64,000 bases of DNA from positions 4,553 to 68,552 of the forward strand of contig JAFGFH010000014.1 in the NCBI GenBank assembly GCA_016931175.1. Reading direction: 5' to 3'. Below, in pieces: positions 2,736-38,500 of the stretch. The position numbers and the translations under genes were made by a program. Origin of the DNA: Nanobdellota archaeon (GTDB lineage Archaea > Nanobdellota > Nanobdellia > Tiddalikarchaeales > Tiddalikarchaeaceae). The notes beneath the pieces are model-generated. The model did no database searches. It was not told the origin of the DNA and saw only the letters and a program-made list of their open reading frames with translations. Position 1 is the stretch's first letter. The number at the start of each line of letters is the position of its first letter.

Positions 2736-5312
2736 TTAAGTAATTAAAACAATTATTTGGTTTATAAAATTAACTAATAATTCAAAGAGGGAGACTTCGT
2801 CAAAGTAGTAAATTCCTTTACTATCCTCTTCTGTTGGCACAACTACCACACTGAATTGTTCAACAAGGTAATCCTCTGGGTTGTTAACATTATTCATTGT
2901 CAAAGTGAAGCTTATCTCTCCGCTTATAACGGGGTAAACGTCAATGTAAGTAACGAAGTCTGATAATGGAGGAACTGTTACAGTTAAAGTATTTGACTCT
3001 GACACTGTGAAGCGGGCGTAGCCGTTATCATAATTCAAAACCAGATTATAAGTTTGGAACTCGTTCAAAGGATTATTTATTGTGAAATTTATGGTTCCAG
3101 AATAAGTGTTGCCTGAAACTAAGAGTCCTGGAGGCAGTTCAACACTAACCTCGCTCGGCGTGTAATAACTCCTTGCCCAAGTATTATTAGATAAACAGTA
3201 ATAAGCGCCTTTAACAATTCCTGTAGCAACGTTGGTATCAACTCCTCCAGCATCACTAACCTGGTCGTTGCAGTCAAATAATTGCCCGCTTGAACAGTAC
3301 AAACTATTACTAATGTTCCCGCTGCTCATTGCAAAACCATTATAACAGCAGCTGCTTTGCCCGAGCCAGTCATCACTAGTCCCGTTGTTCCCGCAGCAAT
3401 AAGGACTCTCACCTGTGTTGTAATTTGGAATCCAAGACCAAGTCGTTGACGCGTTCACGCATAAACTGTAAGTATTCTCAGGATAAGAAGAGCAGTCAAT
3501 ATCAGGGGTTTCACAATACATGCCATAATCCTCCAAGCAGACTCCATCTATTAAACCGCAGTAAATTATTGAACCATTAAAGCAGGCGCCTGAACTATTA
3601 AAGAAAGTATCAAAGGCACCGTCATCACCGCAGCACGCAGCTATCAAATCACCGCTCCTGCCGCTGTTCCATGAAAAATCTAGTGCATCAAGATAAAAAT
3701 CACTATCCTGGTAGTATGATATGAAGTTCCAATTATCCAAATCAGTGCATGTGCCGTAAAAGCCCAGGTTGCTTCCAATTAATACATTATCTTTGTAAAC
3801 ACTCCATGACGAAGCACAGTCATAAATTACTTTATAATAATGCCATAATCCGTCTTTCTGATTCTTTGATTCCAATGTCTTAACCACACCATCATAGTAA
3901 AAGAGTTGGGAACTGCTCCAGTATAATCTAAGATTTCCTCCTCCTGAACCAGAAACCCATAGCCTGTTTTCACCAGAACCTCCTGGCATATTCTTCATCC
4001 AGAAATCAAACGTTCCAGACGCCTGGTTCTGGGTAGTAACACTGACTCCGAAATCACCATTTGTTGCACTCGTATGAAGCATGTGATAAACCTTTTCATG
4101 ACCATCCATTTGTTCAACAACTTCATTAGTTCCGTAATCAGTTCCATAAAGAACCCATCCTGAAGCTATACCTTCACCATTATTATCATAAGTGAATGAA
4201 TAAGTTGCAGGATAATTTGAGTTGTTAAACCAAGTATAGGAATAATCCTCACATAGTGTTTGATTAAAATCTAAAGGATGGAATGTTGCATATCCCTGAT
4301 AGCAGAAACTATTAGTTGTGCTTATACTATTATTATAAAAATTATCATACGCACCGTCATCACCGCAGCAGGATGCATTCGTTCCCGTTGTTGTTCCATA
4401 AAACCAGTCATAACCGTAAATAGTGCAAAGATTTTCACTGTCATCTAATCCATTAATGTAATACTCTGCGTTGTAGCAGAAACTTCCAGTATTCAAAGTT
4501 CCGTTGTAGAAAGTGTCATAAACGCTGTCATCACCGCAGCAAGAAGGAACAGTGTTGTTCGCGTTCAAAGTATTCCAGTCTTTATTCACTGCATCAATCC
4601 ATAAGTAATGGTTGGATGACGCGGAGGATATGACTGCTCCAGTTCCAAATAATTGATTCGTGGCTCCCAGAGTGCCCCAGTCACCGTACAAATTGCACGT
4701 TACTGGACTATTATCATCAAAGGTTACTTCAAAGGTTGAACTCGTGTTGTCAAATTCTACATTAATGTAGTGCCACTGGTTTGCGATTACTGTTCCTACT
4801 AGGGTCATGCCTGCGCCTGCGCCCTCAGCGCACGCAATATCTGACGTGATTATTATTGCTCCCAGGCTCGCAGTCCCGAATGCTAGAACAGGGCTCGCAC
4901 CTGCTGCTCCATTAGATAATAATTCTGCAATTCCGAAGGCGTTGCCAGGGTCTGCCATCCTAAACCAGAAACTCCAATTGCCTTTGGCCTGATTAAAATT
5001 AGCCGTTGCGGACAAGTATTTCTCATTATCAGGGTCAGCATCATTATCCCAGAACTCGTAAACCTTAGCGTGCCCGTCAACTTCATCAACTACGTAACCG
5101 TAACCAGGGTCCGCGCTGCCCCATAGCATGAAACCAGTCGGATTAATCGTGCCATTAGGGTAATCAAAGGATTCAGTAGCATTATAGTGAGAGTTGTTAA
5201 TCCAGTCAAAACCGCTGGACGTGCAAGCAGAAGCAGAAGTATCTTCAGCGAATGTTGCAAAACAAGGGCTAATAAGGATTATAAATATAAAGAAATACTT
5301 CAACCTCCCCAT
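2736..5312 (-). CDS. Secreted cysteine-rich surface protein with two ConA/LamG-like lectin-like domains and four CCGDDGAYD-type repeats
   Basis: ORF track gives 2736..5372. Start chosen at the internal Met (MGRLKYFFIFIILISPCFATFA signal peptide), which also avoids overlap with the structured RNA at 5346-5620. Repeats SCCGDDSVYDTFYN, SCCGDDGAYDNFYN, ACCGDDGAFDTFFN, YCCGNNGTSDDW. Two similar roughly 200 aa domains each containing DGH(A/E)KVY. Confidence 0.65.
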   Translation of the reverse strand: MGRLKYFFIFIILISPCFATFAEDTSASACTSSGFDWINNSHYNATESFDYPNGTINPTGFMLWGSADPGYGYVVDEVDGHAKVYEFWDNDADPDNEKYLSATANFNQAKGNWSFWFRMADPGNAFGIAELLSNGAAGASPVLAFGTASLGAIIITSDIACAEGAGAGMTLVGTVIANQWHYINVEFDNTSSTFEVTFDDNSPVTCNLYGDWGTLGATNQLFGTGAVISSASSNHYLWIDAVNKDWNTLNANNTVPSCCGDDSVYDTFYNGTLNTGSFCYNAEYYINGLDDSENLCTIYGYDWFYGTTTGTNASCCGDDGAYDNFYNNSISTTNSFCYQGYATFHPLDFNQTLCEDYSYTWFNNSNYPATYSFTYDNNGEGIASGWVLYGTDYGTNEVVEQMDGHEKVYHMLHTSATNGDFGVSVTTQNQASGTFDFWMKNMPGGSGENRLWVSGSGGGNLRLYWSSSQLFYYDGVVKTLESKNQKDGLWHYYKVIYDCASSWSVYKDNVLIGSNLGFYGTCTDLDNWNFISYYQDSDFYLDALDFSWNSGRSGDLIAACCGDDGAFDTFFNSSGACFNGSIIYCGLIDGVCLEDYGMYCETPDIDCSSYPENTYSLCVNASTTWSWIPNYNTGESPYCCGNNGTSDDWLGQSSCCYNGFAMSSGNISNSLYCSSGQLFDCNDQVSDAGGVDTNVATGIVKGAYYCLSNNTWARSYYTPSEVSVELPPGLLVSGNTYSGTINFTINNPLNEFQTYNLVLNYDNGYARFTVSESNTLTVTVPPLSDFVTYIDVYPVISGEISFTLTMNNVNNPEDYLVEQFSVVVVPTEEDSKGIYYFDEVSLFELLVNFINQIIVLIT

Positions 5313-5345
5313 ATTATTAATAAGAAGTGTAGCGGTTTTAAAAAA

Positions 5346-5620
5346 TGTAGTGGAGGGAGCTCCTAAGCACAACCATGCATCCCAGTGAACTTAACCAAAC
5401 ACTTTGCTCCACCCTGCTACCTCACGAACACCGAAGAGGATAACTTATAGCTGCTCCCGTCAAGGCCTGACTCTTTCATTAACATCAAGGTCCCGTGAGA
5501 CAAGGCTTCGACGCGCGGTGTAAGGGGTTCTCTAAGGTGCGAAGCCACACTCAGGTATTCAGCTCTGCCAGCAACTTGCAGCGAGGGGTTTCGTTAAAAC
5601 CCAGCCTATCCCTCCAAAAA
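5346..5620 (-). ncRNA. Candidate signal recognition particle RNA (7S/SRP RNA)
   Basis: Non-coding island of about 270 nt, visibly GC-richer than its surroundings. Terminal helix GGAGGGA (5352-5358) pairs with TCCCTCC (5609-5615), as in archaeal SRP RNA helix 1. The minus strand carries GUCAGGCC-UUGAC-GGGAGCAGC, resembling the helix 8 apex CAGGCCC-GGAA-GGGAGCAA. Several internal hairpins, e.g. GGGUUU-CGUUA-AAACCC. Strand and exact ends uncertain. Confidence 0.45.
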
Positions 5621-5661
5621 TTACAAGCAAGTTTTTAAGTTATAAAACTATCGAATAAGAT

Positions 5662-6732
5662 GTGAACGTTGAAAAAGAGATTAAAACCCTTGCAAAGACT
5701 TTAGTGGATTATTGTGTTAAGGTCAAGCAGGGCGAATTGGTTTTAGTAAAATTCAACGGTCCTGGCAGGCAATTAGTTGACGAGCTGACTAAATTAATAA
5801 GCTTGAAAGGTGCTTACTCACTGACTACTTTAAGGAATTATAATTATTACAAGTATTCTCCAATGAAGTCTTTGCAGAAAGAATTTCCTCTTGGGAAGGA
5901 GATAAGCGAGAAAGTAAATTGTGTGATATCAATTGATGACAGCGAGGACTTGTTTAAGCTTAAAATTGTTGATAATAAGAGGTTAAACGCTGCTTCGATT
6001 GCTAATCTGGAGAATGACAGGAGAATTATTGAGGAAAAAAAGTGGTGCATTGTAAGATACCCTACTAGTGCTTTCGCACAGCAGGCAGAGATGGGATTAG
6101 AAGAATACCAGAGTTACGCTTTTAAGACTATGAATATAAACTGGGTTAAGAAGAAAAAAGAAAGCGTTAAGTTAAAGAAATTAATGGATGATACGGATAT
6201 TGTTAGAATCGTTGGGGATAAGATGGATTTAAGTTTCAGCATTAAAGGAAGAAAGAGCATAATCTGTGCTGCAGAGTATAACATGCCAGGGGGAGAGGTT
6301 TGGACAGCTCCTGTTAAAGAAACAGTTAACGGCGTAATGCACTGCCCTGTTGCTTACTATAATGGTAAAAAGTTTGAAAACATAACACTTCATTTCAGGA
6401 AAGGAAGAATTACTGAATTCTCAGTTAAGAATAACAAGAAAGAGTTTGAGAAGATTATAAACGCTGACAAGCATGCAAGGTTCATAGGAGAGTTGGGTAT
6501 TGGAACAAATTATAATATTAAGAAAGTGGTTGGGGATATATTATTTGATGAAAAGATTGGAGGAACCATACATTTGGCGCTGGGTTCTGCTTACAGGGAA
6601 AATTTCAGGGAAGATTTTTCAAAGATGAGCAAGAAAGCAGGTGCGGAATTATCAAACGAGAGCGCGGTTCACTGGGATATGATAATAAGACCTAAGAGTT
6701 TATTCTTCGACGGTAAAAGAGTAAAGATATGA
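5662..6732 (+). CDS. Aminopeptidase-like protein (M29/AmpS-type, tentative); GTG start
   Basis: 356 aa ORF with EVWTAP and GELGIGTN segments reminiscent of thermophilic M29 aminopeptidases. Assignment by memory of family motifs only. Confidence 0.45.
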   Translation: MNVEKEIKTLAKTLVDYCVKVKQGELVLVKFNGPGRQLVDELTKLISLKGAYSLTTLRNYNYYKYSPMKSLQKEFPLGKEISEKVNCVISIDDSEDLFKLKIVDNKRLNAASIANLENDRRIIEEKKWCIVRYPTSAFAQQAEMGLEEYQSYAFKTMNINWVKKKKESVKLKKLMDDTDIVRIVGDKMDLSFSIKGRKSIICAAEYNMPGGEVWTAPVKETVNGVMHCPVAYYNGKKFENITLHFRKGRITEFSVKNNKKEFEKIINADKHARFIGELGIGTNYNIKKVVGDILFDEKIGGTIHLALGSAYRENFREDFSKMSKKAGAELSNESAVHWDMIIRPKSLFFDGKRVKI

Positions 6733-7602: not shown

Positions 7603-8751
7603 TTAAAGCTCTATTAAATTAACCTGTTTGCTTTTGGCTTTGATATTGTTAGATACTATGTTTGAAACTCCTTTCTCTTCTGCAATAGAAACTAATTCCT
7701 TGTCAACAACGCCGTCCACAACTATTGAAACTATGTTATCTGAGCTGTCTGTTAATGTGTTAACTATTTCTGAAGCTGGAAGTTTTCCCTTAATGTTCAT
7801 GTTTTCATCCAACAAGTAAGCTCCTCTTGTTCCGAACAAGTCATTAAGAAGCTCTTTGAACTTATTAGCCTCTCCTTTAACCTCTTTATGAACTTTTTTG
7901 GAGGATGACATCATCTTGCCTCTTGTCTTCTTTCCAAAAAACTCGCTTGCTTTCATCCTTGAACGAAGACATTTGTGAATCTCTTTGCTGGTTAATTCTT
8001 CAACCTCTTTGCCGTCAGGCGCAACTGCTATGTATTCCAAGTTGCCTAGGTTCATCACTTTCTGGGCAATTAATTTCCCTCCCCTGTCGCCGTCAACAAA
8101 CAAGGTACAAACCTTAGTGTCAAGAATTTTTTTAACAGATTTCGGAACGTTTACTCCGTTAACGGATAATAAACCGCCGAAGCGGTTCTTCAGCATGTTA
8201 ACTACATCAGCTCTTCCTTCAACAAGGATTACCTCCTCTGCTGATTCAATATCGTTTGAAGCAGCTAATTTGTCAGGCCCGTACTCTATCAAGTTTGCAG
8301 CCCTCACGCTTTTCTTAACAGTGCTCATTATTTCTTGTGAATCTGTTGATTCCAAATTTAGTTTTTTAAGAAGATTCTTTGCCCTGTCCATTATCATCTC
8401 TCTTTTGTTAAAGCGAACGTCTTCAATCTCTTTCACATTAACCTCTGCTACGCAGGGTCCGATTCTTTCAATAGTTTCAAGGCTTGCAGCTATTATTGCC
8501 GTTTCAGCCTTTGCTAAACTGCTTGGAACTGTTATTGTTCCAGTAGTTTTATCATTCTTTGTTTCAACTTTAACATCTATTCTTCCTATCCTTCCGCTTT
8601 TCTGAAGCTCGCGAAGCTCTAACTCATCACCAAGCAAACCCTCTGTCTGCCCGAAGATGGCGCCTACGATATCATTCTTGTCTATACTTCCTTCAGCTTC
8701 AATCGCTGCGGTTATGATATACTTGGTTGAAACAGGATATATCTTACCCAT
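7603..8751 (-). CDS. dnaG: DNA primase DnaG (archaeal Toprim primase)
   Basis: N-terminus ...IITAAIEAEGSIDKNDIVGAIFGQTEGLLG is characteristic of archaeal DnaG. Toprim region VEGRADVVNM...DGDRGG. Confidence 0.85.
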   Translation of the reverse strand: MGKIYPVSTKYIITAAIEAEGSIDKNDIVGAIFGQTEGLLGDELELRELQKSGRIGRIDVKVETKNDKTTGTITVPSSLAKAETAIIAASLETIERIGPCVAEVNVKEIEDVRFNKREMIMDRAKNLLKKLNLESTDSQEIMSTVKKSVRAANLIEYGPDKLAASNDIESAEEVILVEGRADVVNMLKNRFGGLLSVNGVNVPKSVKKILDTKVCTLFVDGDRGGKLIAQKVMNLGNLEYIAVAPDGKEVEELTSKEIHKCLRSRMKASEFFGKKTRGKMMSSSKKVHKEVKGEANKFKELLNDLFGTRGAYLLDENMNIKGKLPASEIVNTLTDSSDNIVSIVVDGVVDKELVSIAEEKGVSNIVSNNIKAKSKQVNLIEL

Positions 8752-8782: not shown

Positions 8783-9127
8783 TCATAAACCTTCAACGTG
8801 GCTTATTTTCAACTCAGCAAGGTTTTTTTGAAAGGTTTCATCAACCTTCACACCTAACCTGCCAAACTCAGCTTTTAACTTAGAAAACAATTTTCGTCCT
8901 TCAGTGTCATTGTCCATTAATAGTATGACTCTATTATGCAAACTCCCTATCTGCTCAGCAAATGAATATAAAGGCTTGCGTGATAATTGAGTTACTTTTG
9001 TGATTCTAAGCTGTTTGAGCCTGGCAACGTCCTTTGCTCCTTCAACAATAACTAAAGTATCAGCGCGTATAATTTTTTCAATAAACTCTTCCTTTGTTAA
9101 AGGATTTTTGTTGCCCTTTACTAACAC
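8783..9127 (-). CDS. Small Toprim-domain protein (COG1658-like)
   Basis: VIVEGAKD...LLMDNDTEG Toprim acidic motifs in a 114 aa protein immediately upstream of dnaG. Confidence 0.65.
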   Translation of the reverse strand: MLVKGNKNPLTKEEFIEKIIRADTLVIVEGAKDVARLKQLRITKVTQLSRKPLYSFAEQIGSLHNRVILLMDNDTEGRKLFSKLKAEFGRLGVKVDETFQKNLAELKISHVEGL

Positions 9128-26225: not shown

Positions 26226-26774
26226 ATGAAAGGCAGACCAGAAGGCAGCATTATTAGAAACAGATTAATAGCTATACTTCAAAGAGTGAGAACTAGTTAC
26301 GGGTATGAACTTTACAAATTATATAAGGAAATCTTTGGGAACGTTCATATAAGAACCATATATTATAATCTAAAAAAAGGCATTGAAAAAGAGGAAATAA
26401 TAGTTGTTAATGTTGCAAGAGAGTTGGGAGATTATTCATGGGGTGATGAGGTTGAAAAAGTGTATTATAGTGTTGGCCCTTACGCAAACCAAACCCTTTC
26501 CAAAAAAGACGTTGAAAAAATAAATGAAATAAAAAATAAAGAGAATAATATTAAGATAGATTGGAAGAAAGAGGTAACAAATATTGTTAACCAGTACAGG
26601 AAAGAGTTCAATGATTATAAGGAAAGGTATGAAAAATTGTCCAATCAAGGAAAGAAATTATTGAAACAGAGGCTTGAAGAAAAATATAAGAAAATAAAAA
26701 AGTACAGTTCTGACAAGATAAGTGAAAACGATTTGAATACTTTAATAAAAGATTCTAACCCCCAGACCCTTTGA
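26226..26774 (+). CDS. PadR-like winged-helix protein with C-terminal coiled coil
   Basis: N-terminus IRNRLIAILQRVRTSYGYELYKLYKEIFG...IYYNLKKGIEKEEI fits the PadR wHTH pattern. The 3' end overlaps the left ORB-like repeat of the putative origin. Confidence 0.45.
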   Translation: MKGRPEGSIIRNRLIAILQRVRTSYGYELYKLYKEIFGNVHIRTIYYNLKKGIEKEEIIVVNVARELGDYSWGDEVEKVYYSVGPYANQTLSKKDVEKINEIKNKENNIKIDWKKEVTNIVNQYRKEFNDYKERYEKLSNQGKKLLKQRLEEKYKKIKKYSSDKISENDLNTLIKDSNPQTL

Positions 26775-26985
26775 TTTCTTGTGGAACTTATGGAGAACGC
26801 GTTTTAAGTGAAAATGTTTCAACTCCTTTATTTCCTCTGGAAATAAGTTATAAAAAGGTTTAAAGCTGTTGTTCCTTTAGAAAAATAAAAGTTTTTATAA
26901 AATCTTCTTGTTTTATATTATATATATTATTTACCATATAGTAAATATATATTATATATGAAGAACTTCCACAAGAACGAAACCC
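26758..26985. other. Putative replication origin (oriC): inverted ORB-like repeats flanking an AT-rich DUE, immediately upstream of orc1/cdc6
   Basis: TTCTTGTGGAA (26776-26786) and TTCCACAAGAA (26967-26977) are an exact inverted 11-mer. The left copy, read on the minus strand, is TTCCACAAGAAatcAAAGGGTCTGGGGG, i.e. an ORB-like core plus G-string. About 160 bp of nearly pure AT lies between them, including the palindrome-like ATTTACCATATAGTAAAT. Confidence 0.55.
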
Positions 26986-27062
26986 TCTAAACCAACAACT
27001 CCATATGAAACAAAGGTGTATCTGTGGTTTTATTACAGAAATATTTATAAGCTCTCTTTCCT

Positions 27063-28286
27063 TTGGAACTGGATATAATGGTGCAAATGTCTGCTTTTGA
27101 TTTCTTTGAGGAATACTTGGACAAACCTTCATTGTTTAAGAACCCTGACGCGTTAACTCTAAAATTTAATCCTGATAATATACCTCACCGTGATAAAGAG
27201 ATTAATCTGATAGCTCAAATACTCGCCCCTGCTTTGAAACAGGTCAAACCATCTAATATATTCATTTACGGCAAACCAGGAACAGGCAAGACATTGGTTG
27301 TTAAGAATGTTTTAAAGAATATGGAGAAAATATCTGGTTCAAAAAATATTCCTCTTAAGCTTATTTACTTGAACTGCAAGATGCAGAACGTTGCTGATAC
27401 TGAGTATCGGGTTGTGGCCCAGATTTCAAGAGAGTTTGGCAAGGACGTTCCTATCACTGGGCTTCCAACCAATGAAGTATATAATGAGTTCTTTAGTGTG
27501 GTTGACGATACTAAACAAGTTGTGATTCTTGTTCTGGATGAGATAGATGTTTTGATTAATAAATGCGGGGATAACATACTTTACAATCTTACCAGGATTA
27601 ATGAGAACTTGAATAATGCTGTTCTTTCAATAATAGGAATCAGCAATGATGTTAATTTCAAGAATAATCTTGAACCAAGAGTTAAGAGCAGTCTTGGTGA
27701 GGAGGAAATAATCTTTAACCCTTATGATGCTTTGCAGCTTAAAGAGATACTTCATCAGAGGGCGGAGCTGGCATTTAATGAGTCTTCTTTTGATCCTCTT
27801 GTTATTGCCAAATGCGCGGCTTATGCAGCCCAGCAGCACGGTGATGCTAGGAGGGCAATTGCTCTTTTCAGGGTTGCAGGCGAATTGGCAGAGAGGGCTA
27901 ATAAAATATTATCTGAAGAGTTTGTTGACATGGCAGAGAAGCAGCTGGAGAAAGACACAGTTATGGAGCTTGTGAAGAATTTAACATTACAGTCAAAGCT
28001 TGTTTTTTACTCTATCATATCTTCTTTGAAGAACAGGGTTACTCCTGCCTTCACTGGTGAGATATTCGAGTTTTATAATCATATTTGCAACAGGAATGGT
28101 TTGGACGTTCTTACTCAGAGAAGGCTGAGCGATTTGATAGGAGAGTTGGACATGCTGGGATTGATTAATGCCAAGGTTATAAGCAAAGGAAGGTATGGCA
28201 GAACAAGAGAGATAAGCTTGGCTGTTGATGCGGATTATGTTAATAAGATAAGCATATGGTTAGAGGATGATTTAGAGCTTAAATAA
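27063..28286 (+). CDS. cdc6: Orc1/Cdc6 origin-binding AAA+ initiator
   Basis: Walker A GKPGTGKT, Walker B VLDEID, C-terminal winged helix. A TATA-like ATTTATAA at 27043-27050 suggests a leaderless start at the Met at 27078. Confidence 0.9.
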   Translation: MELDIMVQMSAFDFFEEYLDKPSLFKNPDALTLKFNPDNIPHRDKEINLIAQILAPALKQVKPSNIFIYGKPGTGKTLVVKNVLKNMEKISGSKNIPLKLIYLNCKMQNVADTEYRVVAQISREFGKDVPITGLPTNEVYNEFFSVVDDTKQVVILVLDEIDVLINKCGDNILYNLTRINENLNNAVLSIIGISNDVNFKNNLEPRVKSSLGEEEIIFNPYDALQLKEILHQRAELAFNESSFDPLVIAKCAAYAAQQHGDARRAIALFRVAGELAERANKILSEEFVDMAEKQLEKDTVMELVKNLTLQSKLVFYSIISSLKNRVTPAFTGEIFEFYNHICNRNGLDVLTQRRLSDLIGELDMLGLINAKVISKGRYGRTREISLAVDADYVNKISIWLEDDLELK

Positions 28287-28761
28287 TTCTTTTCTTTTTT
28301 CTAATAAACCACATTATTAATAATAAAGGTATTAACAACAGTATTATTTTGACTATATTGTTTGTTTCAGCTGCCAAGTTAGTGATTGAAACCTCACTGG
28401 TTTCTATTAAGCTTGAAGCAAGCAAACCTTCTTGTTTAGGCCGAAGGTATGATATTATGAAGTAGCCGTACATTATTGTTATTGCTGCTTTTACTTCCAA
28501 ATCTTTTGTAACTGATTTTAATAATTTTTTTAAATTCATAATCCAATTATTCTTGTAATCATCACTTAATTCGCACAAGGTTATTGTCTTCTTGTCTTTC
28601 TTTGTTTTTTTCACAATTATTAAATTGTCTTTTTTCATATCATTTATTATCTTATGAGTGTAAGAGTAATAATTCCCTGTCCTCTTAGCCAGTTCGCTTA
28701 TACTAACACCAGGAGTTTCTATTAATATTTTAGTGATTTCATCTTTTAATTTTAAATCCAT
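28279..28761 (-). CDS. Membrane-anchored winged-helix (HTH) protein
   Basis: N-terminus ILIETPGVSISELAKRTGNYYSYTHKIINDMKKDNLI is wHTH-like. Two C-terminal transmembrane helices. Confidence 0.45.
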   Translation of the reverse strand: MDLKLKDEITKILIETPGVSISELAKRTGNYYSYTHKIINDMKKDNLIIVKKTKKDKKTITLCELSDDYKNNWIMNLKKLLKSVTKDLEVKAAITIMYGYFIISYLRPKQEGLLASSLIETSEVSITNLAAETNNIVKIILLLIPLLLIMWFIRKKKRII

Positions 28762-28854
28762 GACTATTCATATTATTTTGTCTTATTATTAAATTTGTTG
28801 TATAAACAAAAGTATATATAATGTTTAAATACTAGCAGAACTTATTATTATTTT

Positions 28855-30411
28855 ATGAAAAAACAGTATTATTTTTTTATTATTTCATTGATTGTTTTGT
28901 CTTCTGGTTTTGCTGATTCTTCATCAGAGGCTATGACTTATTCAGTTCCAGGCTCTGAAGGTGTTGTTGTAGACTCGTACCAAATTAGGGATGATATTTC
29001 TTGTTCTGTTTCCCAGGACGTTATTGATGCCGTCCAGTCCTTTTTAGGTGATAATTTCAACCTTTCAAGTTACGCTTACAGTAATTACAGTGACAGTTAT
29101 TGTTATTTTTATAATGATTATGAAAATATTTATATTAATTTCATATTCAAAGAGAGCGAGAGTGATTACAAGGGTAAACAGGTTAGTTTCTCTTTTTCAA
29201 CATCCCAAGTTTATGATTTTAATTCAGTCTTCTCTGATTTAGAGAACAAAGTCTTAGGTTATACTTTAAAACAGAAATACGTTGATTATTTAATCAGCGG
29301 CGTTGATGAAGAGTACTATGTTACTATTTCTAATAATTATGATGTTAAGAATGGCTGTGAATTGTTGAGGAATTTTTATAATTCACTAACAGGGGAGAAG
29401 TATTTTGAGGAGGATGAGTATTACTGCAGTATTGTTGCAAAGGTGAAGACTTCAGAGTTGAAATCATTGGTTGATGACAAGGTGGGTTACGTTTACTATT
29501 ACACTGATGATTTAAGCTTCACGTTTTCAGGCTATTTTGAAGGAAGCTTTGATTTAGAACAATTATATAATATTCTTGATTGTGATTTGAGCAAGAATAA
29601 TTATTATTATCCCGAGTTTGATTCTGATTGTTATGGCATATATAAGGATAAGCCAAGGATTTATTTCTCAAAGAGTGAGAGTTTAGGTGATTACTGGGTT
29701 AACTTGTACGTTTATGGTATTATTGGTGGCAAAGCACAGTTTAACTTTAATGCTTACGGTGAAGATTTAAGCCTGGCGTCCGCTCAAGCATGGGTTAATA
29801 ATCTTTTAAGCTCTTATTTCCCTTCTTATTCTTTAAATTTAGAGCTTAAAGAAGAGTATTATTCCACATATATTAGTGGAGAGAGTTTAGTTGAAGATTT
29901 CACCTTTGACGCAAGTGTTTTAATTAGTTTAGATTCAAGGCAGGAGCAGATGAACACTTATTATGAAGGGGATAATTTATGGATTACTTTATCCGAACCT
30001 TATATTCAGATAAGGCCAAGTATTGTTCTTTACAAAACATCTTCTGAGATTATGCCTTACCCTTACTGGCAGCAAACAATGGTTATTACCAGTGATAAAG
30101 TTTTTTCTTCCATAACTGTTGATGATAATGATGAATCGCTCGCTGTTGAAGAATTGAATAGTTTCGTGTCTCCTTTTATTGCTCCTGGAGACTGGGTTCT
30201 TGATATGAGCGTGTCAGGTCATTATTATATAATGCCTCTTGCTGAAGCAGGAGGAGTTGATGAGGCAGCAATAATCCAATCCTCTGCAGTTTCAGAAACA
30301 GGAGTAAGGGATGCTTTTTCAACCAATTATGATGTTTTTAATGAATTAGAAGAGACTGAGCAGGAAAATAAGCAAAGCTTCTGGGATTGGGTTTTAAGCC
30401 TTTTTAAATAA
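28855..30411 (+). CDS. Secreted Tyr/Asp-rich protein with signal peptide
   Basis: MKKQYYFFIISLIVLSSGFA signal peptide. 518 aa, acidic and Tyr-rich. Confidence 0.55.
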   Translation: MKKQYYFFIISLIVLSSGFADSSSEAMTYSVPGSEGVVVDSYQIRDDISCSVSQDVIDAVQSFLGDNFNLSSYAYSNYSDSYCYFYNDYENIYINFIFKESESDYKGKQVSFSFSTSQVYDFNSVFSDLENKVLGYTLKQKYVDYLISGVDEEYYVTISNNYDVKNGCELLRNFYNSLTGEKYFEEDEYYCSIVAKVKTSELKSLVDDKVGYVYYYTDDLSFTFSGYFEGSFDLEQLYNILDCDLSKNNYYYPEFDSDCYGIYKDKPRIYFSKSESLGDYWVNLYVYGIIGGKAQFNFNAYGEDLSLASAQAWVNNLLSSYFPSYSLNLELKEEYYSTYISGESLVEDFTFDASVLISLDSRQEQMNTYYEGDNLWITLSEPYIQIRPSIVLYKTSSEIMPYPYWQQTMVITSDKVFSSITVDDNDESLAVEELNSFVSPFIAPGDWVLDMSVSGHYYIMPLAEAGGVDEAAIIQSSAVSETGVRDAFSTNYDVFNELEETEQENKQSFWDWVLSLFK

Positions 30412-30471
30412 AACATATATTACATTTACTTTAACAGTATTTATAAGTAACATAGCTTTTTCTATTAAATT

Positions 30472-31956
30472 ATGGGATTCATTGAGGAGTGTTCCAGTAA
30501 AGGTTTTCTCGTCAGCGAAGGAGTTGACTTTTCCAGAGTGAATTCTCAGGATTTTATTAAATACGTCTTAGATTTAAAAGAAAAACCTTTTGTTATAAAT
30601 CAAGAATTAATTGACGGCTTTAAAAATAATAATTCTTTTTTTGGCAAAAATTTGCCTGAAAATCATAGTGTTGAAGTGTCCTCTCCTGTTTTAAGAGATA
30701 AGGGTTTGTCAAGGGTTGAAGTTATTAAATCTTATAATTTAAATAATAAACTCAGGAGTATGAATGACTGGTTTGATTTTTATCTTAACAGGTTTAACAG
30801 GATGAAAAAATTATTAGAGAACAGGAACGGTTTGCGAAACGCCACCAGTATAGCATCGATTAGTAAGATGAGCGGCAAAAACGAAGTCTCAACTATTGGT
30901 TTAGTGAAGGATATTAGAAAGACTAATAATGGTAATTACATGATTGAGTTGGAAGACCCTACTGGTTTGATTAACATATTTGTTGGAACGAGCAAAACTG
31001 AGTTGATAAAACAATGTGAGGATTTAGTTTTGGATGAAGTTATTGGTGTAGTAGGTTCTACAGGCACTAATTTCTTGTACGTTTCAGAATTGGTTTTTCC
31101 AGAGGTTCCTGACAACCCTGTTAAATACGGGCCTGTTGATGAATATGCTTGCTTTATAGCAGATACTCATGTCGGCAGCACTGACTTTGAGCCTAAAATG
31201 TTTGAGAATTTCACTAATTGGTTGAGGGGAGGTTGCGGCACTAATGAGCAGAAAGAGACAGCTAAGAAGGTTAAGTACTTATTTATTATTGGTGACTTGG
31301 TTGATGGAGTGGGTGTTTATCCTTCCCAGTCTTCAGAATTAACTATTAAAGATATTTACAAGCAGTATGAAGTTTTCAGCGATTACTTGAAAGGTTTGCC
31401 TGAAGATATGCAATTAATATTTATTCCTGGAAACCATGATGCTTTAAGACAGAACGAACCCCAGCCCCCTTTATTCAGTGATATTGCGAAACCTGTTTTC
31501 GAACTTAGTAATGCTAAAAACTTGTCAAACCCGAGCGTTGTTAACATAGGCAAGTATTCCAATTTTAACGGTTTTAACGTATTCCTTTACCACGGCTACA
31601 GTTATACTTATTACGCGAATAATGTTCCTAATCTTTTGAATGTTGGAATGGACAGGCCTGAACAAGTTGGTGAATTCCTTCTTAGGAAGAGGCATTTAGC
31701 ACCAACACATTCCAGCAGTTTAATAACACCTGAAATGGTTGATCCTTTCATTATTGATGCTGTTCCTGACATTCTTGCCACAGGACACTTGCACAAACTG
31801 GGCTACAAGATGTACAGGGGTATTAACATCTTAGGAACCAGTTGTTTCCAGAAGATGACTAGTTACATGCAGAAATTAGGCCACCACCCAACGCCTGGTT
31901 TTGTTCCTTTAATAAACTTAAAGACGAGGAATGTTAAGATTATGAACTTCACATGA
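30472..31956 (+). CDS. polB: DNA polymerase II (PolD) small subunit DP1
   Basis: Calcineurin-like phosphoesterase motifs: ADTHVGS, IIGDLVDG, GNHD, TGHLHK. N-terminal OB region. 494 aa. Confidence 0.8.
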   Translation: MGFIEECSSKGFLVSEGVDFSRVNSQDFIKYVLDLKEKPFVINQELIDGFKNNNSFFGKNLPENHSVEVSSPVLRDKGLSRVEVIKSYNLNNKLRSMNDWFDFYLNRFNRMKKLLENRNGLRNATSIASISKMSGKNEVSTIGLVKDIRKTNNGNYMIELEDPTGLINIFVGTSKTELIKQCEDLVLDEVIGVVGSTGTNFLYVSELVFPEVPDNPVKYGPVDEYACFIADTHVGSTDFEPKMFENFTNWLRGGCGTNEQKETAKKVKYLFIIGDLVDGVGVYPSQSSELTIKDIYKQYEVFSDYLKGLPEDMQLIFIPGNHDALRQNEPQPPLFSDIAKPVFELSNAKNLSNPSVVNIGKYSNFNGFNVFLYHGYSYTYYANNVPNLLNVGMDRPEQVGEFLLRKRHLAPTHSSSLITPEMVDPFIIDAVPDILATGHLHKLGYKMYRGINILGTSCFQKMTSYMQKLGHHPTPGFVPLINLKTRNVKIMNFT

Positions 31957-32016
31957 TTTGTTACTACAAGATTGTAACAAAGCTTTTTTAATACAATATT
32001 AATAACTAATCTTGCT

Positions 32017-32574
32017 ATGAGTGAATTATATTCTGATTTTGTTCAAAGAGTAAAACTAACTATTGAATACTTTAACGAAGACGCTGACATTATTTCCTCT
32101 ATAGAGTCCAAGGCAAAAAAGAAGGTTTACTTATCTGTTATAGACCAATTAATTGAAGTGACTGAGAAGTATTGTCTTGATGAGGATGGGAGCAGATTAA
32201 GCGTTTCAGAACTCTTGGAGAAGAGCGAGGAGGAACTGGTTAAAATAATAAAAGAAAACATTGAAACTGAACCTGCCAAATCTAATAATTTAATCTTTGA
32301 GGTTATTATGAAAGGACTTGAAAATAAGCTGGCATCAGACAATGATTTGGTGAAGATAAGGGAGGCAAGAAAGGCCATTTCAGAACTATATGATGATTTC
32401 AGCAGTTACTTTATTGATGGAGGAGAAAACCTTCTTAAGGAAGAGGTTGAGAACAGTTCCGCATTTTCGCTTATTAAAAAGACTAAGGAGAAGACGGAGT
32501 TGTTAAGAAAAGTCTATGACGCTTTTGAGAATGTGAGGAAGAAAGTTGACAACTGGTTTTATGTCCACAGCTAG
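32017..32574 (+). CDS. Hypothetical acidic helical protein
   Basis: 185 aa, charged, predicted coiled coil. Confidence 0.45.
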   Translation: MSELYSDFVQRVKLTIEYFNEDADIISSIESKAKKKVYLSVIDQLIEVTEKYCLDEDGSRLSVSELLEKSEEELVKIIKENIETEPAKSNNLIFEVIMKGLENKLASDNDLVKIREARKAISELYDDFSSYFIDGGENLLKEEVENSSAFSLIKKTKEKTELLRKVYDAFENVRKKVDNWFYVHS

Positions 32575-32607
32575 ATTTAAAACCCACTAATTGTTCTGAT
32601 ATGATTA

Positions 32608-33714
32608 ATGAAATTTTTTAATATTGACAGTTTGAGGAAGAACTTAAGCGAGCTGCACATCCACCTAACTATTGAAAACATCGCCCTTAGTCTGATAAGC
32701 GTTTTTATTCCAATATTCATGCTCACAATTGGTTTCTCATTGAATGATATATATTTTTATTACCTGGTATATTCTTTTTCAACTCTTCTCTCTTCTCTCT
32801 TCTCTTTCGTTTTTTCAAGGATTGGTTTTAAAAAAATTATTATGTTAAGACCTGTTAGTGTGATAACTTTTTTATTATGGCTTTATTCTCTTGAATTTTT
32901 TCCCAGCTCCTATTTTTTTTTAGCTGTTTATAACGGTTTTTTTTCAGGAATATACTGGGTTATTTTTCACTTCTTTTTTGCTAAGAAAGCTGACGGTGAC
33001 GACGTTGAAGGTCAGGTGGGGTTGTTGTTTGCAATGCCGAAACTTTTTACCATGATCTCTCCAATGATAGGAGCTCTAATAATATCCTTTTTTTCTTTTA
33101 ATGTTCTTTTCTTATTGGTTGCTTTTTTATTATTAGTAAGCATTCTCCCTCTTATTCATTTAAAAGAGCAGAGGTTTAGTTTTAAATTCGAAGTCTCGAA
33201 TTTGCTGGACTGGTCTTTTGTTAAATACGCGCTTGGTTTTATTAACGAGAGCATTCATTATTATGCTGTTGTTTTCCTTCTTCCTTTATACATTTATTTT
33301 ACATTAAGCTCTACTTTAGAGATTGGTTTTTTCTCAACAGTTGTAGGAGTGAGCGGTTTTTTAACGCCCCTTATTATTTCCTCCTTGTGCAGGGGAAGGA
33401 CTAATTTATTTATTAAATTAGGGGCAATGCTTAATGCTGTTTTTTTCTTTTTCGTTTTTTTCTTAAAAACACCGTTGGAGTTTTTCTTATTCGGTTTTAT
33501 TATAGGAACTTTCACTTCTTTTTGGGAAATTCCTTTCTATTCCAGGATGTACAAGCATGCTAGGAACTCTAACACTTTAGAGTTCTTTATTTTCAGGAAA
33601 GTAATCCATGGCATAACAGAGTCTGCAATATTCGTACTGCTTCTTCTAACGTCAAACTTTTCTATTATTTTCTTGTCAGAGATAACCAGCAAGATTCTTT
33701 TCGTGTTTTTTTAA
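32608..33714 (+). CDS. Polytopic membrane protein (about 10 TM, Phe-rich)
   Basis: 368 aa, almost entirely hydrophobic helices. Contains a CT dinucleotide microsatellite at 32790-32815. Confidence 0.5.
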   Translation: MKFFNIDSLRKNLSELHIHLTIENIALSLISVFIPIFMLTIGFSLNDIYFYYLVYSFSTLLSSLFSFVFSRIGFKKIIMLRPVSVITFLLWLYSLEFFPSSYFFLAVYNGFFSGIYWVIFHFFFAKKADGDDVEGQVGLLFAMPKLFTMISPMIGALIISFFSFNVLFLLVAFLLLVSILPLIHLKEQRFSFKFEVSNLLDWSFVKYALGFINESIHYYAVVFLLPLYIYFTLSSTLEIGFFSTVVGVSGFLTPLIISSLCRGRTNLFIKLGAMLNAVFFFFVFFLKTPLEFFLFGFIIGTFTSFWEIPFYSRMYKHARNSNTLEFFIFRKVIHGITESAIFVLLLLTSNFSIIFLSEITSKILFVFF

Positions 33715-33755
33715 GGCAAAATCTTTTATATTGCCAGATTTTTTAAAAATTCAGC

Positions 33756-34223
33756 ATGAACTGTCCCCTCTGCCACTTGATTAAAAGGGTTTCTGAGTGG
33801 AATGTTAAAAATAAAAAGTGGAGCAAGAAGATAGGCCCTCTTGTTGTTAGAGGAGAGCAGTATTTTACCTCACCTAAACATGATAAGGGTTACAAGGACA
33901 TTGTCAGATATTTTGACGGCGAGTTCTTGTTCGTTAACTCTGTAAGGATTGAGAGCAGTTCGAGGGATGTTGTTATATGTATGCCTGTCAAGCATGTTAA
34001 CAAGTTCGATTTGAGGAAGAAGGAAAACTCTGAGTTGTTAAGAAAGCTGGATGAGAAGATTCTTAGTTTTATTAAGAAAGAGTACAAGAGTGTTGGTGGG
34101 AATGTGAGAGTCTTTGAGAACTTCGGCAGCCTTGCTAGCATTCCAGAGCACGCGCATAAGCAGATTGTTTATACTAAGAGCAAGGGTTTGCATCTCACAT
34201 TTATACCTATTAAGTATAATTGA
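33756..34223 (+). CDS. HIT-family-like protein with degenerate histidine triad
   Basis: N-terminus MNCPLCHLIKR resembles HIT (CIFCKII). The VVICMPVKHV segment is like the HIT core. Triad region is EHAHKQIV rather than HxHxHxx. Confidence 0.45.
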   Translation: MNCPLCHLIKRVSEWNVKNKKWSKKIGPLVVRGEQYFTSPKHDKGYKDIVRYFDGEFLFVNSVRIESSSRDVVICMPVKHVNKFDLRKKENSELLRKLDEKILSFIKKEYKSVGGNVRVFENFGSLASIPEHAHKQIVYTKSKGLHLTFIPIKYN

Positions 34224-34989
34224 TTTCTACAAGATTGCTGATTAGGTTGTTCAAATCGTAATAGTAATATTTTTCATTATTTTCGTATACGATTATTTTT
34301 CCTTTAACGCAGACTATTCTCCCGTTCAAGTTTGTTGAAATTGTTGGTTCAGAAGGTATTGAGTCCAGTCCTTCATAGTATCTTCTCACGTTAATTATAG
34401 GCACGTCTAATTTTTTTTCTTTCAAAAATTCTTCAAAATAACTGAGATCGTCTTTCATGAAATTCTGCACCTTTTCCTTATTGCTTATTCTGTCGCTTAT
34501 CTCTTTTGCTAACAAGTGTTCTTTTCTCCTAATGTCCAAGCCGTTGCCTGATGAGATTATGCAGGAGTAGTCGCTTCCCTGTTCTACCCACCTCTTCAAG
34601 TACCTGCCTGCCTTGGTTACTCCAACCTTAATCTTTTCACCTATTATTGTCAAATACATGAAGTGAGTCTTGTTCAAGCAGTTTTTCATGATTTCAGCGC
34701 TGGCATTGCATTGCTGGCCAGTGCATTTTGCGCAAGTGTTGAAATCATCCATTTTCCTGCACTTATTGCATTGTTTGCCGTAGCTTATTTCTTCATTAGA
34801 AGGGCAGGCGTGAAACTCGCCGTTTTTATAATAACCTGTGCATTTCTTCCCGAAATCCTTTAACACTTGAATAGTCTTATTCCTGTTAAGGGGTAAATAA
34901 TGCTCTGTATTGTCTTCTTTAACGATTTTAAGAAAAGGAGTGGCTTTCTTGTCCAATTTGTAAAAAAAACCAGTAATATGAACCTTCAT
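34210..34989 (-). CDS. Cys-rich hypothetical protein (putative zinc-binding)
   Basis: CPSNEEISYGKQCNKCRKMDDFNTCAKCTGQQC cluster. 259 aa. Confidence 0.5.
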   Translation of the reverse strand: MKVHITGFFYKLDKKATPFLKIVKEDNTEHYLPLNRNKTIQVLKDFGKKCTGYYKNGEFHACPSNEEISYGKQCNKCRKMDDFNTCAKCTGQQCNASAEIMKNCLNKTHFMYLTIIGEKIKVGVTKAGRYLKRWVEQGSDYSCIISSGNGLDIRRKEHLLAKEISDRISNKEKVQNFMKDDLSYFEEFLKEKKLDVPIINVRRYYEGLDSIPSEPTISTNLNGRIVCVKGKIIVYENNEKYYYYDLNNLISNLVEINYT

Positions 34990-35078
34990 TAATCAACCAA
35001 ATTGTTTAAAGATAAAGGATTTTTCGGTTATTATTCCGATAATAATATTTTTAAAGATATTTTTCTCTTATTAAACTC

Positions 35079-35561
35079 ATGGGATTGGTTGAAAAGCTTA
35101 GAGTTAAAGAGATAGTTAAACACTTTAATTTCAATAGTTTAGACGATTTTGTTTTGAGGATGAATGAGGTCTTGGGTCACAAGCGCCAGGAGGTTCCAGG
35201 TGAAATTGTGGCAGATGATAATACTAATCCTAAGCAGGTTGTTAATGACGTTTATAAAAGAATTAAATCAGGAGAGTATAAGAGGCTTATTGGCTGGTGC
35301 GCTCACTTTGCTAATTTAACAAAGAAAATAGCTGAATATTTTGGCGAGAAAGGCAGTGTTGAGCATTATAATGTATTATATTTGAATCCTGAGAAGCCAA
35401 CTCATCACTATGTCTTTGAAAAGAGTGATGGTATAGTAATGGATGGTTCTATCTATAATAGTTATGCTTCTAATTATACTCTGGATATGATTAATATTGA
35501 TAGGGTGGCTATAAGGGAGCGTGTGGATAGAACAAGCCAAGATGATAGATTCGTATTTTAA
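35079..35561 (+). CDS. Transglutaminase-like (papain-fold) putative cysteine protease
   Basis: GWCAHFA (G-x-C-x-x-FA) followed by HHYV and DG residues, consistent with a Cys-His-Asp triad order. Confidence 0.45.
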   Translation: MGLVEKLRVKEIVKHFNFNSLDDFVLRMNEVLGHKRQEVPGEIVADDNTNPKQVVNDVYKRIKSGEYKRLIGWCAHFANLTKKIAEYFGEKGSVEHYNVLYLNPEKPTHHYVFEKSDGIVMDGSIYNSYASNYTLDMINIDRVAIRERVDRTSQDDRFVF

Positions 35562-35598
35562 ATCGATTGTATTTGATTACAATAATAGTTTTTAAACT

Positions 35599-38500
35599 GT
35601 GTATTATTCCAATCTTTTAGTAATGGTGGAATGTTCTCCCCGTGTAAGTGAGTATCTGGGTAGTATTGAGAAGGCTACGCTTAAGGAGTATAATTTGGCA
35701 GAGCAAGCCAGGAAGCTAGGCTTCGATCCTGAGGATAAAGTGGATATTCCTTTGGCTGCTGATGTTGCAGAACGTTGTGAGGGTATTGTTGGCGCTGTTG
35801 CTCCTGAAGTTATTGGTGTAGGCATTCCTGCCAGAATCAGGGATTTAGAGAAGGAGTACAGCAGTGGTGATTGGAGGATAGCGTTCATAATAGCTTCTGA
35901 GATAGCTAATGGCAAGTTTTACAAAGTGACTGATTTGAGAAGAGCTTTAGAGACTGGCGTCCGCGTAGGTTTAGCTTATATTACTCTTGGTGTAACGTGC
36001 GCTCCTTTAGAGGGTTTTATTGAATTAAAGCTTAAGAATCGTTTAGACGGCGGGCAGTACTGCGCGGTTTATTACGCAGGTCCTATCAGGGCAGCTGGGG
36101 GAACTGCAGCAGCGGTTAGTGTATTAATTGCTGATTATGCGAGGAAATCGGTTGGTATTAAAGATTATGATCCGCAGCCTGTTGAACTTGACAGGTATTA
36201 TGCGGAGTTAATGGATTACGATGAGAGGGTTAGCAGGTTGCAGTATAAGCCGAATAAGGAAGAGGTTTACTTCCTTGTTAAGAATATTCCTGTAGAGCTT
36301 AACGGCGACCCTACTACGCAGTACGAGGTTAGTAATTATAAAAGGCTTGAAAGGGTTGAGACGGATTTGATAAGAGGGGGAATGTGTTTAGTCTTAGGTG
36401 AGGGTATGAGTTTGAAGGCTAAGAAAGTTATTAAGAACATTGCTAAGTGGGGGGAGAGTGTTGGTATGCAGCACTGGTTATTCCTTAATGACTTTGTTGA
36501 ATTGCAGAAGCAGATTCATGCCCAGGGAGCAACGGTTAAGAAGGAGGAAAATAGCAATGATTCTTGCAAGGTTAAACCAAACACTAAGTTTATTGACGAG
36601 TTAGTAGCAGGCCGTCCAGTATTTAGCCACCCAATGGCTGTTGGCGGGTTCAGGTTAAGGTATGGCAGGAGCAGGTTCAGCGGTTTAGCAGCAGCTTGCG
36701 TTCATCCTGCAACTATGAGGATAACGGATGATTTCATAGCAACAGGCGTGCAGTTAAAGGTGGAGAGGCCGGGTAAAGCTTGTGCTGTCAGCCCTTGTGA
36801 TTCAATATCAGGCCCGTTGGTTAAGCTGAAGAATGGTAATGTTTTATGGCTTAATAGTGAGGAAGAAGCTCTTAAGTACAGGAAAGACGTTTCTGAAGTC
36901 TTATTCTTAGGTGATATTCTTTTCTGTTATGGGGATTTCATGGAGAATGGTTCCATGCTTGTTCCTGCAGGTTACGTTAAGGAGTGGTGGGTTCAGGAGT
37001 TGAAGGCTAAGCTTGGCGGGGACGTAAACCAGCTTCAGAAAGAGGTTAGTGTTGATTTAAACTTGTTATTAAACGAGCCTTTAACAACTAGTGTTGGGTT
37101 AGAAGATTCTGTTATAATATCAAGAAATACTGGTGTGCCTCTTAACCCGGAGCATGTTTTTTTCTGGAATAATATTTCAGCAAATGATTTGAAAAATTTA
37201 GTTCAAGAATTAGAAGGGCTTAATCTTAATCTTGAAAACATTGAGATTGGTTTAAGTGTTAAGCCTGTTCTTGAAAACCTTTACGTTCCCCACCAAGTCG
37301 TTAATGACAAAATATTATTATCTGAACTTGACGGCAGGAGATTGCTTGTTAACTTAGGATATGATAAGGGTTTCAAACAAGCAGTTGGTGATGATGTTCT
37401 GAAAATGGTTAATTCATTAAGCAGTTTTGAGATAAGAGATATTGGCGGGACTTTTATAGGCGCGCGCATGGGCAGGCCTGAGAAGGCTAAGCTTAGAAGA
37501 ATGACTGGAAGCCCTCATGGATTATTCCCTGTAGGAGAGGAGGGAGGCAGGTTAAGGAGTTTTAACGCAGCGAGTGAAGCAGGCAAGGTTACTGCAGAGT
37601 TTTCACTTTTTCACTGCGATAATTGTAATATTGATACTGTTTACAGGTTATGCGAGGAGTGCGGGACCAAGACTAGCAAGAAGTATTATTGCGTTAAGTG
37701 CAAGAAGATAGGTGATAAAGAGGTTTGCTGCGGTGAACACGCGAAGACTTATGTTAAGAAAACAATTGATATTAATCATTATATTAGGAAGGCGCTGACT
37801 AGTTCAGGATTGCAGATGCCTAACTTGGTTAAAGGTGTTAAGGGTGTTTGGGATAAGGACAGGATAACTGAGAATTTCATGAAAGCTTTGCTTCGTTCTA
37901 AGAATAATGTTTACGTTAACAAGGATGGAACAATAAGGTATGATATTATTGAAACCATTGCCACGCATTTTACTTGCGAGGATGCAGGCATTACTGTTGA
38001 AAAAGTTAAAGAGTTAGGTTATTACAAGGACATTCATGGTAAGGAATTAATTTCTTCTTCCCAAGTTATTGAATTGCTGCCCCAGGATGTTATTCTTCCA
38101 AACTGTACTGAGTGGCATGATGCAAGCGCTGTTGATTTCCTTTTAAAGACTTGCAGTTTTATTGATGACGAGTTGGAATACTTGTATCATTTGCCGAGGT
38201 TTTTTAATGTTAGAACAAAGGACGAGTTAATAGGCTTGCATATTATTAGCTTGGCTCCGCATACTAGTGCTGGAATAGTCAGCAGGGTTATTGGTTTCAG
38301 TAATACTCAAGGCATGTACGCTCATCCTTACCTGCACGCTGCGTGCAGGCGAAACGCTGACGGTGACGAGTTAGGAGTGATACTCTTAATGGATGGTTTG
38401 TTGAACTTCAGCAGGCAGTTCCTTCCGGACAGGAGGGGAGGAAGAACCATGGATGCTCCCCTAGTTTTAAGTGTTAAGCTTGATCCTTTAGAGATTGACA

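Follow-up and report, generated by a model that had tools for sequence, protein, structure and literature searches.

A signal recognition particle RNA gene without helix 6 in a DPANN archaeon close to Candidatus Tiddalikarchaeales

Description of the locus

The signal recognition particle (SRP) contains a universal RNA, and the particle directs proteins to the membrane. Here, we describe an SRP RNA gene that lacks helix 6, the hairpin with a GNAR tetraloop that forms the SRP19 binding site, in a 64,000-nucleotide (nt) stretch of DNA from an assembly labelled Nanobdellota archaeon (GCA_016931175.1, contig JAFGFH010000014.1, positions 4,553 to 68,552 of the forward strand). This whole stretch is called the window, and positions count from its first letter. 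The gene lies on the minus strand, between an M29 aminopeptidase gene and a gene for a large, putatively secreted protein. A preliminary description, made from the sequence alone, had proposed an SRP RNA at 5346-5620 in a "divergent gap" between these two genes; the model-defined ends are 5351-5616, and "divergent" holds for the RNA and the aminopeptidase gene, the RNA and the downstream secreted-protein gene being codirectional. The locus holds the following features.

5662..6732, plus strand: M29 aminopeptidase gene (Pfam PF02073, E 7.6e-55)
5640..5653, minus strand: putative promoter, TATA box TTTATAA at -30 to -24 (5640-5646) with CGATAG upstream, conserved in four lineages
5351..5616, minus strand: SRP RNA gene, 266 nt, helices 1, 2, 3, 4, 5 and 8 (Infernal with RF01857 and RF01854; covariation)
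5608..5616, minus strand: helix 1, 5' strand UGGAGGGAU, pairing with 5351-5359
5559..5607, minus strand: Alu-domain 5' region with helices 2, 3 and 4 (Rfam alignment)
5485, minus strand: would-be helix 6 site, a single nucleotide (RNA position A132) taking the place of 40 model positions
5448..5471, minus strand: helix 8 apex GUCAGG-CCU-UGAC-GGG-AGCAGC (RF01857 and RF01854 alignments)
5351..5359, minus strand: helix 1, 3' strand CUCCCUCCA (RF01857 alignment; covariation)
5340..5345, minus strand: T6 run, 6-11 nt past the RNA 3' end, probable oligo-T terminator (conserved T-run)
2736..5312, minus strand: downstream neighbour, a large protein without Pfam match, same direction as the RNA

Identity and strand of the RNA

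Infernal, run on the region alone with permissive thresholds, matched minus-strand positions 5351-5616 to Archaea_SRP (RF01857) with 92.4 bits (E 1.6e-21), the alignment spanning model positions 1-317 and so the full length of the model. Archaea_SRP, not Bacteria_large_SRP (RF01854), is the best-scoring member of the SRP clan (Rfam CL00003) in this search; the other Rfam families reach only E 5-7 in the interval, none of them significant, and the plus strand of the interval has no RNA family match. Across the whole 64-kb window at curated thresholds, RF01854 is the sole non-tRNA Rfam match (5355-5614, minus strand, 66.9 bits against a gathering score of 60, E 8.6e-08), and Rfam finds no second SRP RNA match within the window. 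The Bacteria_large_SRP threshold is passed because the helix set (1, 2, 3, 4, 5 and 8) is that of the Bacillus-type large RNA. The RNA is not a canonical archaeal 7S RNA, and Rfam's own thresholds report it as Bacteria_large_SRP. These full-length matches to two SRP covariance models, a check that the preliminary description had itself suggested, bear out both the SRP RNA that it proposed and the minus strand that it favoured.

The G+C content of 5351-5616 is 0.53, compared with about 0.35-0.46 for the flanking genes, and the only open reading frames (ORFs) overlapping the interval are mechanical ones of 43 and 47 amino acids (aa); the composition had already been described as unlike the surroundings, and the interval as holding no credible ORF.

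Relatives, synteny and covariation

The M29 aminopeptidase gene served as a synteny anchor for retrieving relatives. Its product matches an NCBI protein labelled 'Nanoarchaeota archaeon', on a 90.7-kb contig, at 100% identity and is 56-61% identical to four more proteins, among which that of Ca. Tiddalikarchaeum anstoanum, a DPANN archaeon of the class Nanoarchaeia and order Tiddalikarchaeales (PMC8561730), shares 56%. An SRP RNA is found at the same place and in the same orientation, with conserved gene order, in Ca. Tiddalikarchaeum and two other lineages. The loci were taken from NCBI (L122) and from three Logan runs (L123, L124 and L125), and their RNAs, which are 73-78% identical to the window RNA, lie as follows.

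L122: about 2881-3146
L123: 3856-4125 (identical to L124)
L125: about 717-982

With the window RNA these give four distinct sequences, from which RNAalifold recovers the SRP fold, the folding of a homologue alignment being another check put forward at the outset. After addition of helix 2 and the helix 3/4 loop pairs, the fold has 93 pairs. In this set 95.9% of cells are paired, against 36-46% in slid-partner controls, and 31 of the 93 pairs show compensatory double changes, against 3-7 in the controls; none of 500 shuffles reaches the observed values. The compensatory changes indicate that the fold is under selection.

Helix 1 is formed by the 5' end UGGAGGGA and the 3' end UCCCUCCA, all of its cells are paired across the four lineages and two of its pairs covary, so the GGAGGGA/UCCCUCC end pairing seen from the sequence is indeed helix 1. 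Helices 2-5 are placed by the Rfam alignment. Helix 2 is present in the RF01857 alignment, helix 3 is GGGUUUU/GAAACCC with the loop AAC, and helix 4 is CUGC/GCAG with the loop AAGUUGCUG. The loops of helices 3 and 4 form a pseudoknot in which AAC pairs with GUU. One of these loop-loop pairs (A2 columns 22/45) is A-U in the window RNA and L123 and G-C in L122 and L125, the loops pairing as AAC/GUU in two lineages and as GAC/GUC in the other two, a compensatory change. The conserved GUCGAA...UGUC / GGU.GCA region lies in helix 5, which is long. In the U-turn linker between helices 3 and 4 (5583-5586, minus strand; A2 columns 32-36) the canonical UGUNR, the form found in most archaea, is absent and CUCG stands in its place; the relatives have CUUG or UAUA, and most other DPANN RNAs UGUAA or UGUUG. 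Deviations from UGUNR are already known in several archaeal groups (PMC2905702), and the linker of the window lineage is a further erosion of this canonical Alu-domain motif.

Two wider scans yielded no further close relatives. None was found among the matches listed by a genome scan with the helix 8 apex (described below), and none by a metagenome scan with GAGCAGCTATAAGN{8,24}GGTGTT, whose matches were mostly gut-metagenome contigs.

Absence of helix 6

In the window RNA the helix 6 hairpin with its GNAR tetraloop is absent, a single nucleotide aligning with the 40 model positions, and in L122, L123/L124 and L125 helix 6 is also deleted (40 positions to 0). The RF01857 alignment gives the same reduction, from 40 positions to 0, in woesearchaeon L065 and nanohaloarchaeon L078, and a Thermoplasmata control (L023) keeps helix 6, with a GGAG loop. 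A hidden or relocated helix 6 was considered and rejected. The nucleotides beside the deletion pair as the base of helix 8, and this proximal part of helix 8 holds four covarying pairs, so the stretch is not a cryptic mini-hairpin. On either side lies AT-rich sequence of promoter or terminator type, 38 and 45 nt long, and no spare hairpin was found in the 266 nt or in these short flanks.

A comparison between groups was drawn from a scan with the helix 8 apex CAGGCC(Y)UGACGGGAGCA (query CAGGCCYTGACGGGAGCA, one genome per species), which gave at least 120 loci. Of 36 archaeal loci taken from the matches listed and scanned with Rfam, 34 gave an SRP RNA, and the comparison consists of scan loci among those matches together with the window RNA and its three relatives.

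DPANN-type, n = 20: length 266-278 nt; 5' end to helix 8 apex 145-164 nt; apex to 3' end 96-103 nt
Thermoplasmata and relatives, n = 15: length 306-312 nt; 5' end to helix 8 apex 190-197 nt; apex to 3' end 96-99 nt

Among the RNAs examined, helix 6 is absent from 20/20 of the DPANN-type and present in 15/15 of the Thermoplasmata, and the 40-nt difference between the groups falls exactly at the helix 6 site, as seen in a 21-sequence alignment and in the model alignments. Members of the DPANN-type set are the window lineage, Woesearchaeota, Nanohaloarchaeota, Aenigmatarchaeota, Iainarchaeum, 'Nanobdellati', the Altiarchaeota metagenome-assembled genome (MAG) LFW-28, two archaea without a group label and two bins labelled Methanosarcinales. 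These last two loci, L087:7282-7551 and L101:702-971, carry the label 'uncultured Methanosarcinales archaeon' and hold 270-nt SRP RNAs without helix 6. For L087 the leucyl-tRNA synthetase (LeuRS) was inspected; its best named matches, at 52-57% identity, are from Woesearchaeota and Nanoarchaeia, which makes the Methanosarcinales label unreliable, and L087 was set aside as a counter-example to DPANN specificity.

A separate case is an Altiarchaeales locus (SpSt-1148, L035:199-507) with a 309-nt SRP RNA that has no helix 6 at the canonical site and 159 nt from the 5' end to the apex. On the 3' side of helix 8, an unusual place for an insertion, this RNA has an additional hairpin of about 30 nt, CAAACACU-UUCG-GGUGUUUG, and its tail is 132 nt long compared with about 100 nt.

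Helix 6 could also be missing because a canonical archaeal 7S RNA lost it through an assembly error or as a decaying pseudogene; the source is a metagenome-assembled genome, and the score falls just under the archaeal threshold. This is extremely improbable, as the same precise absence recurs in independent assemblies from different samples (L122; L123, L124 and L125) and in 16 further DPANN-type loci, the compensatory changes point to selection for the fold, and the window offers no second SRP match.

Several points weigh against reading the interval as a native SRP RNA of an archaeal type without helix 6. The Archaea_SRP score of 92.4 falls about 4 bits short of the curated gathering score, 96.5, a shortfall explained by the cost of the helix 6 deletion and by AT-rich divergence; the relative L123 likewise scores 95.2. 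The folding energy of the single sequence is no better than shuffled (z = -0.36 for the RNA strand, -1.65 for the other strand); it was given no weight, and the support comes from the covariance models and covariation, the latter resting at the lineage level on four distinct sequences only. The DPANN loci of the scan were all selected for the UGAC apex and are thus a biased sample, outside which lie DPANN lineages whose loops differ, Nanoarchaeum equitans among them. A search with Methanocaldococcus jannaschii SRP19 (query checked against PDB 1LNG) reached Methanocaldococcus-like proteins only and has no bearing on DPANN. Taking these points into account, we put the probability at roughly 0.93 that 5351-5616 on the minus strand is an SRP RNA gene without helix 6 from a DPANN archaeon of the class Nanoarchaeia, near Ca. 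Tiddalikarchaeales.

To our knowledge, textbooks treat helix 6 as universal in archaea, and helix 6 and SRP19 as defining parts of the particle in Archaea and eukaryotes. A 2010 survey found helix 6 and SRP19 coexisting in every archaeal group (PMC2905702), and searches for archaeal SRP RNA have used the helix 6 GNAR loop as one of only a few fixed motifs (PMC4731332). No description of an archaeal SRP RNA without helix 6 was found in the searchable open-access literature, which is not proof that none exists. The gene class is thoroughly known; what appears to be new is the archaeal SRP RNA without helix 6, and it is common to many public DPANN MAGs.

Helix 8 and its tetraloop

The helix 8-like motif pointed out earlier on the minus strand is the helix 8 apex at 5448-5471, made up of the symmetric-loop motifs CAGG and AGCA, a stem of 3 base pairs and the tetraloop UGAC (5459-5462). 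In an alignment of 21 archaeal SRP RNAs the motif columns show little or no variation. A GRRA (GNRA-type) tetraloop is absent, the UGAC loop being of the URRC type, and the loops of L122 and L125 are UGAU. The preliminary description was right that the loop is not GNRA, but such a loop is not very unusual: URRC is described as widespread in bacteria, in place of GNRA in their SRP RNAs, where URRU also occurs (PMC4091067), and the identical 18-nt apex is present in at least 120 species of bacteria and archaea. Among the matches listed, the bacterial carriers include Planctomycetota, Bacillota, Chloroflexota, Sumerlaeota and others, and the archaeal carriers are Thermoplasmata, Methanomassiliicoccales and DPANN groups, with the UGAC loop in at least 35 other archaeal SRP RNAs. 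GRRA helix 8 loops were the only ones reported, from all archaeal groups, in the 2010 survey (PMC2905702); the archaeal URRC loop extends that picture, is common in present genomes and is not peculiar to this RNA. As UGAC occurs together with helix 6 in Thermoplasmata, the type of loop is independent of the loss of helix 6. That distant bacteria and archaea have this apex in common reflects either a striking convergence or deep conservation of the URRC variant.

The frequency of the UGAC apex in Planctomycetota, Bacillota and Chloroflexota is one of the grounds on which the RNA could be taken for a bacterial large, Bacillus-type SRP RNA, present through contamination or acquired from a bacterium; the others are that Bacteria_large_SRP alone among the SRP families passes its gathering threshold (66.9 against 60) and that the helix complement, 1-5 and 8 without helix 6, is of the bacterial large type. 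The archaeal model nevertheless scores higher (92.4 against 66.9 bits) despite a deletion of 40 positions, other DPANN RNAs of the same architecture score 101-154 bits on it, and among the matches listed the similarity of every bacterial locus ends with the 28-nt apex. Synteny of the gene extends over four DPANN lineages, with an archaeal TATA at -27 upstream that is conserved in the relatives. The genes of the window are archaeal throughout and include FttA/aCPSF1, a proteasome subunit, ProRS, MetRS, SerRS, aRF1, RPA, Cdc6/Orc1, PolD DP1 and DP2, NrdD, FEN1 and archaeal-type tRNAs. A bacterial origin is therefore very unlikely.

Transcription signals and neighbouring genes

In the window, L122, L123/L124 and L125 alike, a block CGATA(G/T)(T/A)TTTATAA(C/T)TTAAAAA...TTGCT stands equally far upstream of the RNA 5' end, and a run of 4-6 T follows within about 15 nt of the 3' end in all four lineages. 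Judged from this conservation, the block is probably an archaeal promoter with a B recognition element (BRE) and TATA box, and the T-run an oligo-T terminator; the gene appears to be transcribed from its own promoter and would yield a discrete, stable RNA. Because the RNA lies 38 nt upstream of a codirectional secreted-protein gene, read-through is conceivable, and the interval might be the 5' leader of a flanking gene, or else some other structured RNA. The full-length SRP match at E 1.6e-21, beside which other Rfam families reach only E 5-7, and the RNA's own conserved promoter and T-run leave such a reading a next to negligible chance.

In the downstream gene an in-frame ATG at 5312 opens a signal-peptide-like N-terminus, MGRLKYFFIFIILISPCFATFAEDTS (MGRLKYFFIFIILISPCFATFA), and leaves the 38-nt spacer to the RNA; the ORF probably starts there and not at the mechanical TTG at 5372, which overlaps the RNA 3' end. 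A T6/A4 stretch in this spacer could double as the RNA terminator and the TATA box of the next gene.

On the other side, a near-palindromic TATA element, TTTTATAA/TTATAAAA (5640-5661), lies between the RNA and aminopeptidase genes and might act in both directions. Annotation places the GTG start of the aminopeptidase at 5662, only about 15 nt from the TATA, so that either the mRNA is leaderless or the true start is further downstream; in L123 the homologue is shorter by 9 residues. Two adjacent Toprim-domain genes (382 aa and 114 aa; 7603-8751 and 8783-9127, minus strand) lie near the aminopeptidase gene, and the order of this pair and a gene for a 280-aa protein without Pfam match is conserved beside it in L122, L123 and L125.

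Predicted particle and its origin

In the structure proposed for this RNA, helix 1 clamps the termini and the loops of helices 2-4 kiss, forming an Alu domain at one end of a rod. By analogy with Bacillus and other archaea, the Alu end would reach the ribosomal factor-binding site and slow elongation. Helix 5 passes directly into helix 8, like that of the Bacillus 6S-type RNA, and from established SRP biology the symmetric and asymmetric loops of helix 8 are expected to bind the SRP54 M domain, and its apical tetraloop to help recruit the receptor FtsY. The gene is taken to be single-copy and appears to be transcribed on the minus strand from its own BRE/TATA promoter, ending at the T-run.

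Without helix 6 there is no docking site for SRP19, so the particle most likely consists of SRP54 and RNA only; that it binds SRP54 and targets nascent chains is what we infer by analogy. A particle free of SRP19 is plausible because archaeal SRP54 binds SRP RNA when SRP19 is absent and Haloferax volcanii remains viable after its SRP19 is deleted (PMC2905702, PMC6098224), and because the reports on two complete nanohaloarchaeal genomes give Ffh, FtsY and SRP RNA and do not list SRP19 (PMC10266531). In the part of the window scanned against Pfam, none of the 28 ORFs is a gene for SRP54, FtsY or SRP19. The supplements of the DPANN genomics studies consulted have no entries for SRP19, PF01922, arCOG01217 or K03105.

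Two histories may be considered. Helix 6 and SRP19 may have been lost together during genome reduction across most of DPANN, to which we give an even chance and which is considerably likelier than the second. Under that second history, a two-component SRP of the Bacillus type, SRP54 with an RNA lacking helix 6 and no SRP19, would be DPANN-wide and, if DPANN lie near the root, the ancestral archaeal state, making helix 6 and SRP19 a later invention on the line to the other Archaea and eukaryotes rather than a trait of all archaea that DPANN lost; we regard this as unlikely.

If the loss of SRP19 is true, a Bacillus-architecture SRP RNA in this lineage, and apparently in much of DPANN, would represent a natural SRP19-independent archaeal particle, in keeping with the dispensability of SRP19 in Haloferax. 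The presence or absence of helix 6 and of SRP19 would provide clean characters for the archaeal tree. In annotation, genes of this kind miss the Archaea_SRP threshold and receive the label 'bacterial large SRP' in archaeal MAGs, and SRP19 may mislead as a marker of completeness in these genomes. The gene itself is an ordinary housekeeping gene.

Other features of the window

Elsewhere in the window, a 551-aa protein (50563-52218, minus strand) combines MtrA-like, thymidylate synthase and pterin-binding DUF4346 domains in an unusual fusion, and in a 621-aa protein (43259-45124, minus strand) a PIN domain is joined to an ATPase domain of the type II/IV secretion family and a KH domain. Cdc6/Orc1 (27063-28286) is close to the PolD subunit genes (30472-31956 and 35599-39102), which suggests that 26226-39102 is a replication-gene neighbourhood, possibly with an origin nearby.

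Comparison with known SRP RNAs

The window RNA shares with Archaea_SRP (RF01857) helix 1, the Alu helices 2-4 with loop-loop pairing, the GA...GUC / GGU.GC region of helix 5, the CAGG/AGCA motifs of helix 8 and an archaeal host. It differs from that family in having no helix 6 or SRP19 site, in its UGAC loop, in CUCG in place of UGUNR and in a score below 96.5. With Bacteria_large_SRP (RF01854) it has an identical helix complement and passes the gathering score, but its sequence is nearer to the archaeal model, and its genome and promoter type are archaeal. In Bacillus the Alu domain has helix 1 and a loop-loop pseudoknot and contains no protein, features that are common to bacteria and archaea (PMC4231752); the pseudoknot apparently has 3 pairs in the window RNA, compared with 5 in B. 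subtilis.

Closest in architecture are the other DPANN SRP RNAs, from Woesearchaeota, Nanohaloarchaeota, Aenigmatarchaeota, Iainarchaeota and the Altiarchaeota MAG, which likewise have no helix 6 and carry the apex CAGGCC(U/C)UGACGGGAGCA. They are 267-278 nt long, most of them with a UGUAA linker and a score of 98-154 bits on the archaeal model; the window lineage has a higher A+T content and has diverged further. The SRP RNAs of Thermoplasmata and Methanomassiliicoccales have the identical UGAC apex, but are 306-312 nt long and retain a normal helix 6 with a GNAR loop.

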